The position numbers and the translations under genes were made by a program. A stretch of DNA of 8,053 nucleotides, from the IMG/VR virus record IMGVR_UViG_2563366906_000012; one strand, given 5' to 3'. Below the pieces are notes generated by a model, which did no database searches, was not told the origin of the DNA, and was given only the letters and a program-made list of their open reading frames with translations. How positions within the stretch are numbered: position 1 is the stretch's first letter; each line of letters starts with the position of its first letter. Below, piece by piece: positions 1,051-1,465 of this stretch. The DNA is from a virus. Taxonomy: Duplodnaviria > Heunggongvirae > Uroviricota > Caudoviricetes.

Positions 1051-1344
1051 TTAGCCAATCCTTTTCGCGGAGTGGTTGGACTCTGTTGACTCTGGCCCAA
1101 TGTGCGCGAGAGCCGGTGCGATTTGTCCTGCGTCCGGCGCGGTTTTATCTGTCATAAGCCATAGAGCATATTTTTGGAATGTGGGATGCATAGTGATTTT
1201 TAGCAAAGCTGTGCCACCGGGTTCAAAGTTTCCTCCTTCATATTTTTTAAGTGTGCTTAGCGGTAACTCTATGATTTCACAGAATTTTGATTGGCTTAGC
1301 CCTTCAGCCTCACGCAAGGCCTTAATCTTTTCGCTTAATTTCAT
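1051..1344 (-). CDS. C: Immunity repressor, P2 C-like (HTH DNA-binding protein)
   Basis: 97-aa minus-strand ORF directly upstream of int in the same orientation. The N-terminus has an HTH-like segment (LSQSKFCEIIELPLSTLKKYEGG). The C-terminal segment (YALWLMTDKTAPDAGQIAPALAHIG) matches what I recall of the P2 C repressor family. Size (P2 C is about 99 aa) and position fit. Gene symbol is by analogy to P2. Confidence 0.8.
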   Translation of the reverse strand: MKLSEKIKALREAEGLSQSKFCEIIELPLSTLKKYEGGNFEPGGTALLKITMHPTFQKYALWLMTDKTAPDAGQIAPALAHIGPESTESNHSAKRIG

Positions 1345-1465
1345 TTGACATGGTGCCTATATAGGGACTAAATTCCCTCAAAACTGGAACCTATATAGGT
1401 TCCATTGATTTGAGAATAAACCAGCGTCTAAACGGTTTTGAGTGGTTTAGAAAGGGCTGGATCCT
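1345..1465. promoter_or_regulatory. Lysis/lysogeny switch region: candidate early promoter Pe (-35 TTGACA 1345-1350, 18-nt spacer, -10 TAAATT 1369-1374, rightward) with two operator-like palindromes
   Basis: The intergenic region lies between the divergently oriented C and cox genes. The core CCTATATAGG occurs twice (1356-1365 and 1390-1399); the second sits inside a perfect 18-bp palindrome GGAACCTATATAGGTTCC (1386-1403). The first overlaps the spacer of the candidate promoter and the second sits just downstream of the predicted transcription start, which is the arrangement expected for repressor operators. Promoter hexamers are by-eye matches only; the leftward Pc promoter could not be placed confidently. 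Confidence 0.5.

Follow-up and report, generated by a model that had tools for sequence, protein, structure and literature searches.

What reads the repeated, palindromic sequences that separate the repressor gene from cox in this P2-like phage, and does it read them as direct or as inverted repeats? The C repressor of P2 forms a symmetric dimer, resembles proteins that bind palindromes, and has a structure similar to that of P22 c2, its helices being spaced 26 Å apart (PMC2995052). It is cited as a rare case of such a dimer on non-palindromic direct repeats, and how it reads them was still termed puzzling in a 2015 NMR paper (PMC4752584). The three P2-type C operators that have been mapped are all described as two direct repeats, or 'half-sites' (PMC1904268). 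The DNA analyzed here, called the window throughout, is one stretch of 8,053 nt in which the regulatory region of a P2-like phage was identified. In our reading, to which we give a probability of roughly 80%, positions 1345-1404 hold the early promoter (Pe) of a temperate P2-like phage and a two-part operator for its own C repressor. The operator reading draws on the anatomy of the region, its positional homology with Wphi, the co-variation of the two sites among relatives, and mutations in two virulent or clear-plaque derivatives; we infer C as the binding protein, its occupancy of one dimer per site, and the transcription start position.

Genes, promoter and repeats of the switch region

Leftward from a single intergenic region the minus strand encodes a 97-aa helix-turn-helix protein followed by a tyrosine integrase, and rightward lie a Cox homologue, a short orf78-like ORF, and B-like and A-like replication genes. 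This arrangement, int-C leftward and cox-orf78-B-A rightward, has the order found in the annotated P2, Wphi and L-413C records. Over positions 1000-1800, Escherichia phage P2_AC1 is 100% identical to the window, while P24B2, the E. coli O157:H43 T22 prophage, R18C, FSL SP-004, vB_YpM_50, L-413C and HQ103 are 98.6-99.8% identical, HQ103 standing at 98.6%. The P2-like phage of the window has the L-413C / R18C / HQ103 / P2_AC1 immunity type. The L-413C genome was reportedly the subject of Garcia et al. in 2008, and Karlsson et al. in 2006 are said to have distinguished seven immunity classes. The prophage type of the window is common, not rare: a segment of 151 bp around the operator is present in single copy in 420 of 5,426 complete E. 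coli genomes (about 8%). Two positions inside cox, 1570 (a silent change in a GCA codon) and 1693 (Asp for Glu at cox codon 76, numbered from 1466), distinguish the window, and P2_AC1 with it, from all the rest of the 30 other sequences of the same type.

The solved P2 C repressor (2XCJ/2L49) matches window C over residues 3-97 (E = 1.9e-21), and window C is 56% identical to Wphi C. The first-pass annotation had suggested an immunity type distinct from that of P2, and this is borne out: identity to P2 C is 43%, the differences are concentrated in the N-terminal helix-turn-helix half with the C-terminal half conserved, and the P2 half-site GTTTAGAT is absent. Helix 3 of window C reads L29-S-T-L-K-K-Y-E-G-G-N39.

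The repressor start codon (CAT at 1342-1344, read on the minus strand) is directly followed by TTGACA, the -35 element of a promoter with an 18-nt spacer and the -10 element TAAATT; the promoter adjoins the start codon as had been claimed, and it is the only sigma-70-like match within 1000-1800. Consensus and homology support its designation as the early promoter Pe, with transcription predicted to start near 1381, and the description of the region as the switch region is likewise supported. In the closely related HQ103, the Pe fragment drives GFP (PMC10321612). At one prophage-derived contig (locus L089) a 1374 T>C change converts the predicted Pe -10 from TAAATT to TAAATC, possibly a promoter-down change in a defective prophage.

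The decamer CCTATATAGG is present twice in this region, at 1356-1365 and 1390-1399, both copies exact as originally reported and 34 bp apart from centre to centre. A third copy was absent from the window even at 2 mismatches, and the complete 33-kb P2_AC1 genome holds no exact copy beyond these two places. Distal copies able to support looping were likewise absent from the window and from the whole genome, save for a core with 1 mismatch, CCTCTATAGG, at P2_AC1 (locus L209) 490-499; this lies outside the window, inside a hypothetical gene, and is compatible with chance. The second decamer had been placed within a perfect palindrome of 18 bp, GGAACCTATATAGGTTCC (1386-1403). The palindrome is real but its length was understated, as one extra base on each side yields a perfect palindrome of 20 bp, TGGAACCTATATAGGTTCCA (1385-1404), the sole perfect palindrome of at least 12 bp in the window. 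The first decamer also lies within a dyad, the imperfect 18-bp sequence GGTGCCTATATAGGGACT, in which 7 of 9 pairs are complementary. Each copy of CCTATATAGG is its own reverse complement, and the two copies therefore constitute a direct repeat and an inverted repeat at once, with orientation undefined.

Both copies occupy positions where operators sit, in agreement with the first-pass annotation: the first in the -35/-10 spacer and the second just past the predicted start, with the 18-bp site around it at about +5 to +22 relative to that start. We refer to the two 18-bp sites as candidate operator sites O1 and O2 (Table 1). Written about the dyad centre (slash), O1 is GG TG CCTAT/ATAGG GA CT and O2 is GG AA CCTAT/ATAGG TT CC, so that G at -9 and -8, CCTAT/ATAGG from -5 to +5, and C at +8 are common to both. 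Published accounts characterize the P2-type repeats as non-palindromic and in direct orientation (PMC2995052, PMC4752584), a description that the window sites do not fit, O2 being a perfect dyad of 18-20 bp and O1 pairing at 7/9. To assess chance we shuffled the 121-bp intergenic region 20,000 times with its dinucleotide composition preserved, in place of a 2-mismatch chance estimate unsuited to two exact copies. A direct repeat of at least 10 bp appeared in 76 of the 20,000 shuffles and a palindrome of at least 20 bp in none, and these counts, together with the conservation of the sites, rule out a chance origin of the repeats and the palindrome.

Table 1. Positions of the features of the switch region in the window
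Feature	Position	Strand	Description
C immunity repressor gene	1051-1344	-	ORF, 97 aa; N-terminal helix-turn-helix, Pfam HTH_3
Predicted Pe -35, TTGACA	1345-1350	+	Abuts C start codon; same position in Wphi; equivalent to annotated Pe -35 of P2
Candidate operator site O1, GGTGCCTATATAGGGACT	1352-1369		Imperfect 18-bp dyad; core 1356-1365; fills -35/-10 spacer; positional homologue of Wphi O1
Predicted Pe -10, TAAATT	1369-1374	+	Sigma-70 match; -10 at same place in all 56 related switch regions
Extended imperfect inverted repeat	1377-1414		Outer arms CTCAAA (1377-1382) and TTTGAG (1409-1414) around the perfect inner palindrome
Candidate operator site O2, GGAACCTATATAGGTTCC	1386-1403		Perfect 18-bp dyad (20 bp as 1385-1404); core 1390-1399
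cox (probable start)	1481-1753 (ORF listed from 1466)	+	Pfam Phage_Cox, E = 1.5e-23; likely RBS GAGGG (1469-1473)

A hairpin formed by 1385-1404 and followed by TTGATTTG might instead act as an intrinsic terminator or attenuator, and a consensus terminator scan did flag it. The T tract TTGATTTG is poor, however, and with the hairpin about 5-25 nt past the promoter the early transcript would stop about 25 nt from its start, before cox and the replication genes; relatives retain the hairpin but continue into a CGGGCGTGAG-like sequence without a T run. Given the weak tract, the position of the site and the absence of the tract in relatives, we consider a terminator extremely improbable and rejected it.

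Between O2 and cox, where the repressor promoter Pc is expected, no minus-strand sigma-70 consensus match was found in the scan of 1000-1800, although weak candidates can be picked out by eye around 1425-1454. A 7-bp inverted repeat, TCTAAAC / GTTTAGA (1427-1433 and 1445-1451), lies where Pc and the Cox-binding sites are expected, and a 15-nt direct repeat, TTTTGAnTGGnTTAG, occurs both inside the C gene (1285-1299) and at 1436-1450. A mutated, non-functional Pc is reported in the HQ103 paper (PMC10321612). HQ103 (locus L164) carries G1426A in the region where Pc is expected, a change that phage FSL SP-004 shares, as do six further viral contigs (L086, L088, L089, L092 and L096 among them); G1426A is a common polymorphism and therefore may not explain the inactive Pc of HQ103. 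As to cox itself, the Pfam Phage_Cox match begins at residue 15 of the long form, at profile position 7, and phage P37 has an in-frame stop after the upstream cox ATG. The start at 1466 given in the first-pass annotation is probably five codons too long, and the ATG at 1481, which is annotated in most related phage records, is probably the cox start.

Comparison with mapped operators and related switch regions

P2 shares with the window its repressor family, a pair of sites flanking the Pe -10 and the Cox switch logic, and its Pe faces a convergent Pc of the kind expected in the window, but its site GTTTAGAT, present twice, is a non-palindromic sequence of 8 bp with the copies 22 bp apart (PMC1904268), and P2 C is unable to bind a single site. 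P2 Hy dis likewise has a repressor of the same family and a two-site operator, but its sites of 8 bp, 26 bp apart, flank the -35 and not the -10 and are described as non-palindromic (PMC1904268). The third mapped operator, that of Wphi, consists of 10-bp sites 34 bp apart that flank the -10 (PMC1904268). Liu, Ahlgren-Berg and Haggard-Ljungquist located the Wphi sites by experiment and mutated them (summarized in PMC1904268 and PMC1904263); mutations in a single site are tolerated and double mutations abolish repression (PMC1904268), and Wphi C is able to bind one 'half-site' alone (PMC1904263).

The Wphi region reads CAT-TTGACA-GTAACC-TATTGGTGAC-TTATAT...TATTGGTGAC, and the window reads CAT-TTGACA-TGGTG-CCTATATAGG-GAC-TAAATT...CCTATATAGG. 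In both phages the C start codon abuts TTGACA, a 10-bp repeat lies in the spacer, and a second copy follows 34 bp downstream, just past the start; both also encode a repressor of ~97 aa (56% identical) within an int-C / cox-B-A gene order. They differ in the sequence of the repeat (CCTATATAGG in the window, TATTGGTGAC in Wphi), in helix 3, which carries K-K-Y in the window and K-N-Y in Wphi, and in symmetry: the window repeat is its own reverse complement and lies in dyads of 18 bp, and published descriptions of the Wphi repeat call it non-palindromic. Because the geometry equals that of the mapped Wphi operator, the two-site layout is not new. The earlier supposition that the palindromes imply a different operator architecture is not supported as stated, the layout being that of Wphi (10-bp repeats, 34 bp apart, flanking the -10); the window differs more narrowly, in the dyad symmetry of each of its sites. 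What is new, judged from the sequence, is the element itself, a repeated unit that is its own reverse complement and hence a dyad-symmetric variant of the known Wphi layout.

Repeats of the window type have very probably been noticed already in the earlier literature. A full-text literature search for CCTATATAGG yielded nothing beyond papers on other subjects, such as MADS CArG boxes, and a statement that window-type repeats are palindromic was not found in the literature searched, a search that Karlsson et al. 2006 lay outside. We note that the first operator site of Wphi itself (locus L001, 652-669), when written as 18 bp (AGTAACCTA/TTGGTGACT), has 7/9 complementary pairs and therefore a hidden dyad symmetry, despite being described as one of two non-palindromic direct copies.

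Beyond the P2-type operators, those of 434, P22 c2 and lambda, which are palindromes of 14-18 bp bound by dimers of the Xre/HTH_3 type, resemble the window sites in their dyad symmetry, in their similar length, and in having conserved outer positions around an AT-rich centre. They differ in forming three adjacent operators read by two-domain repressors, whereas the window has two sites 34 bp apart and a single-domain repressor of 97 aa. Phage 186 is P2-related, like the window, and its CI binds inverted repeats at face-to-face promoters, but this repressor has 196 aa and two domains, assembles into 14-mers, makes use of distal sites and depends on CII (PMC1904263), none of which is seen in the window. 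A CI switch of the 186 type was accordingly ruled out, window C being a single-domain protein of 97 aa and cox being followed by the orf78-like ORF and B with no cII.

We then placed the two sites among their relatives, drawing on 160 loci encoding C homologues in bacterial genomes and viral contigs (given here as L numbers), which include 56 distinct switch regions with a Wphi-like layout. In these 56 regions the -35/-10 spacer is always filled by O1, with O2 following 30-37 bp further on. Within one phage the two sites agree on average at 13.5 of 18 positions, compared with 9.4 ± 1.5 between phages (56 distinct switch regions), and over the central 9 nt the corresponding values are 6.4 within a phage and 4.0 ± 1.3 between phages (38 distinct O1 types). 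The two sites change together as the repressor changes, which is expected if the phage's own repressor, and not a host protein, reads both.

The orientation of the second site is variable across these relatives. Of the 38 operator types, 16 have O2 in the same orientation as O1 and 22 have it inverted; further loci bearing on the inverted O2 are L113-L116, L140, L145 and L151. The comparison of L016 with L119 and phage P37 (L166) is particularly informative in that all three have the helix segment SGIALGTLKNYEGGHQ and the site CTGACTTAATGAC in common, and yet L016 has a direct O2 where L119 and P37 have an inverted one. Orientation therefore seems free, and a free orientation fits a model with one independent dimer on each site.

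Dyad symmetry of O1 at a level of at least 5 of 6 pairs was found in the window and in L006, L007, L014, L030, L107, L109 and L121, a score with a null frequency of 3%. Symmetry at this level is restricted to a single clade, in which helix 3 carries x-K-Y-E/D throughout and whose consensus is TCC-W6-GGA, whereas the O1 sites of the K-N-Y group show symmetry at the random level. As O1 lies upstream of the predicted start, its symmetry is not explicable by an RNA hairpin. A close relative with the same helix 3 (L105/L005) has the asymmetric repeat GGAACCTATATGTGT, which lacks the right half of the dyad, so dyad symmetry is common in the clade and not obligatory.

Substitutions in lytic derivatives

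The 801 bp at 1000-1800 were compared over 31 sequences of the same type, comprising nine phage records and 22 prophage or viral contigs. Both 18-bp sites are invariant in 29 of the 31. The two that deviate are R18C, which its publication describes as a virulent phage (PMC6823313), and L-413C, which arose from L-413 as a clear-plaque mutant (PMC3448106). Within the 801 bp, R18C (locus L165) differs privately at only two positions, with G>T at 1364 in the core of O1 and C>T at 1390 in the core of O2. L-413C (locus L002) does so at four, with C>A at 1356 in the core of O1, C>A at 1402 (position +8 of the dyad of O2), T>C at 1373 within the -10, and a change at 1632 in cox. Expressed by dyad position the operator-site substitutions fall at -5 and +4 of O1 and at -5 and +8 of O2, all of them symmetric positions that the two sites share; the shared positions give the O1/O2 consensus GGnnCCTATATAGGnnC. 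The 1402 substitution of L-413C lies outside the 10-bp core and is therefore an operator change only under an 18-bp model of the site. By our arithmetic, two random substitutions would fall one in each 10-mer, as in R18C, with a chance of about 3e-4, and four would hit both 18-bp sites, as in L-413C, with a chance of about 6e-3. A separate scan of IMG/VR with the flanks, leaving the cores free, recovered 34 contigs; both cores are intact in 33 of them, the exception being R18C itself.

The C gene is intact in both R18C and L-413C. A clear-plaque or virulent phenotype in combination with an intact C is the classical signature of an operator mutant, and the substitutions in the candidate operator are the likely cause of the lytic behavior of the two phages. 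Repression by Wphi C is lost only with mutations in both sites, and R18C and L-413C show a matching double-site pattern. The R18C paper is without discussion of the cause of its virulence (PMC6823313). A third lytic derivative, HQ103, carries instead a 7-bp deletion in C (1179-1185); its truncated C is inactive, and an intact 294-bp homologue supplied from a plasmid blocks plaques (PMC10321612). In the lytic Yersinia phage vB_YpM_22, which has the Wphi immunity type, we found one change in O2 only, plus several in C.

Taken at face value, these features would be accounted for by a single C dimer sitting on each dyad-symmetric site. The recognition helices would read CC/GG at about 4-5 bp and G/C at about 8 bp from the AT-rich centre TATATA, much as the 434, P22 c2 and lambda repressors read two successive major grooves and leave an AT-rich centre uncontacted. 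A dimer on O1, between the -35 and the -10, would exclude RNA polymerase, and with O2 placed just past the start both sites would be required for full repression, as in Wphi. The two dimers, 34 bp apart, would probably cooperate through DNA bending; at about 3.2 turns of the helix, this spacing does not put them on quite the same face of the DNA. Such a one-dimer-per-site model agrees with the binding of Wphi C to a single 'half-site' (PMC1904263).

Proteins other than C have to be weighed as readers of these sites: Cox is one candidate, and a host nucleoid protein with a preference for AT-rich DNA, for instance H-NS or IHF, is another. H-NS binds and shifts the HQ103 Pe fragment and silences Pe at 21 °C (PMC10321612), from which it follows that C is not the sole protein acting there, and the TATATA at the centre of the core is of the composition that such a protein would favor. 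The sequence of the sites nevertheless follows the repressor recognition helix, with both sites moving together, which is unexpected for a host protein, and Cox in P2 and Wphi acts at Pc, further downstream (PMC3936717). The virulent and clear-plaque phenotypes with an intact C again carry the signature of operator mutants. A site for Cox or a host factor is very unlikely as the explanation of the repeats and fails on the phage-specific co-variation, while an additional action of H-NS may occur.

The inverted repeat around O2 and the reading of the sites

The symmetry around O2 extends beyond the operator dyad. O2 is flanked by inverted arms in every Wphi-like region, for example CCCGAAAAGGT...ACCTTTTCGGG and CTCAAAAGGT...ACCTTTTGAG; a typical form of the arms, seen in L001, L166 and about 50 other loci, is CnnAAAAGGT-N12-ACCTTTTnnG. 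Covariation of the arms was counted on a structure that we specified ourselves, over 44 related sequences. The arms pair in 78% of cells compared with 67% in shuffles, none of 500 of which reached the observed value, and double changes were found in 53 cells where 21 were expected. Sliding the partner by one to three columns brought the pairing to 57% or below. Compensatory change this far out, 12-17 bp from the centre, is more indicative of base pairing than of contact by a protein, and the arms may form an RNA stem-loop in the leader of the early transcript, of the leftward repressor transcript, or of both. Because this inverted repeat, which co-varies across the family, also encloses O2, the palindrome there exceeds 10 bp; its 20 bp appear to combine a dyad-symmetric operator with the inverted repeat of the family.

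It might then be argued that the 20-bp palindrome matters mainly as an RNA stem-loop, with a role in mRNA stability or translation, and not as a protein site. The predicted hairpin is strong on both strands (-16.4 kcal/mol for the window + strand and -18.4 kcal/mol for the - strand, z about -5) and possible in all 56 Wphi-like switch regions, and the co-varying outer arms, at 12-17 bp from the dyad centre, are too far away for one dimer. The first decamer, however, has the same core with no long arms, lies upstream of the predicted start, and is mutated in both virulent derivatives. Nor would the hairpin account well for R18C, where 1390 C>T retains a G-U pair in the + strand RNA (-13.8 vs -16.4 kcal/mol) and so hardly harms the structure. 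In Wphi, repression stays intact after removal of 6 or 10 nt upstream of O2 (PMC1904263), nucleotides that on our reading of the Wphi sequence belong to the left arm of the inverted repeat, so that repression probably does not depend on the arms. RNAalifold on the 44 related O2 regions gave no consensus structure, an Rfam search over the whole window at E up to 1 gave no match, and wobble pairs, at 22 vs 33 by strand, showed no clear bias. On balance a role mainly as an RNA element is unlikely for the palindrome, and an RNA hairpin as its sole function fails on the first copy, which is not transcribed from Pe, on the mutations in both derivatives, and on the retained G-U pair. The operator model does leave room for a hairpin with a further function that overlaps its own.

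More broadly, and only tentatively, we suggest that the C repressors of the P2 family may be ordinary symmetric dimers and not special 'direct-repeat binders', binding one to each site of 16-18 bp whatever the relative orientation of the two sites, with O2 embedded in a conserved RNA stem-loop. The palindromic class, the 22 operator types with an inverted O2, and the opposed pair of L016 and L119/P37 all fit the ordinary-dimer part of this suggestion. The palindromic sites, together with the inverted second sites of relatives, suggest that each repeat is a full dimer site. If this is true, the naturally symmetric substrate would open to direct test the question of how an asymmetric repeat is read by a symmetric dimer, and the palindromic class may be a better substrate for a protein-DNA structure. 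The operator substitutions would in turn offer a simple molecular explanation for the lytic behavior of two phages in practical use, L-413C in plague diagnosis and R18C in Citrobacter/EPEC model work, and would predict that R18C and L-413C plate on lysogens of the window prophage type, which about 8% of complete E. coli genomes contain. The inverted repeat that co-varies around O2 is, for its part, a candidate regulatory RNA element in a well-studied switch.
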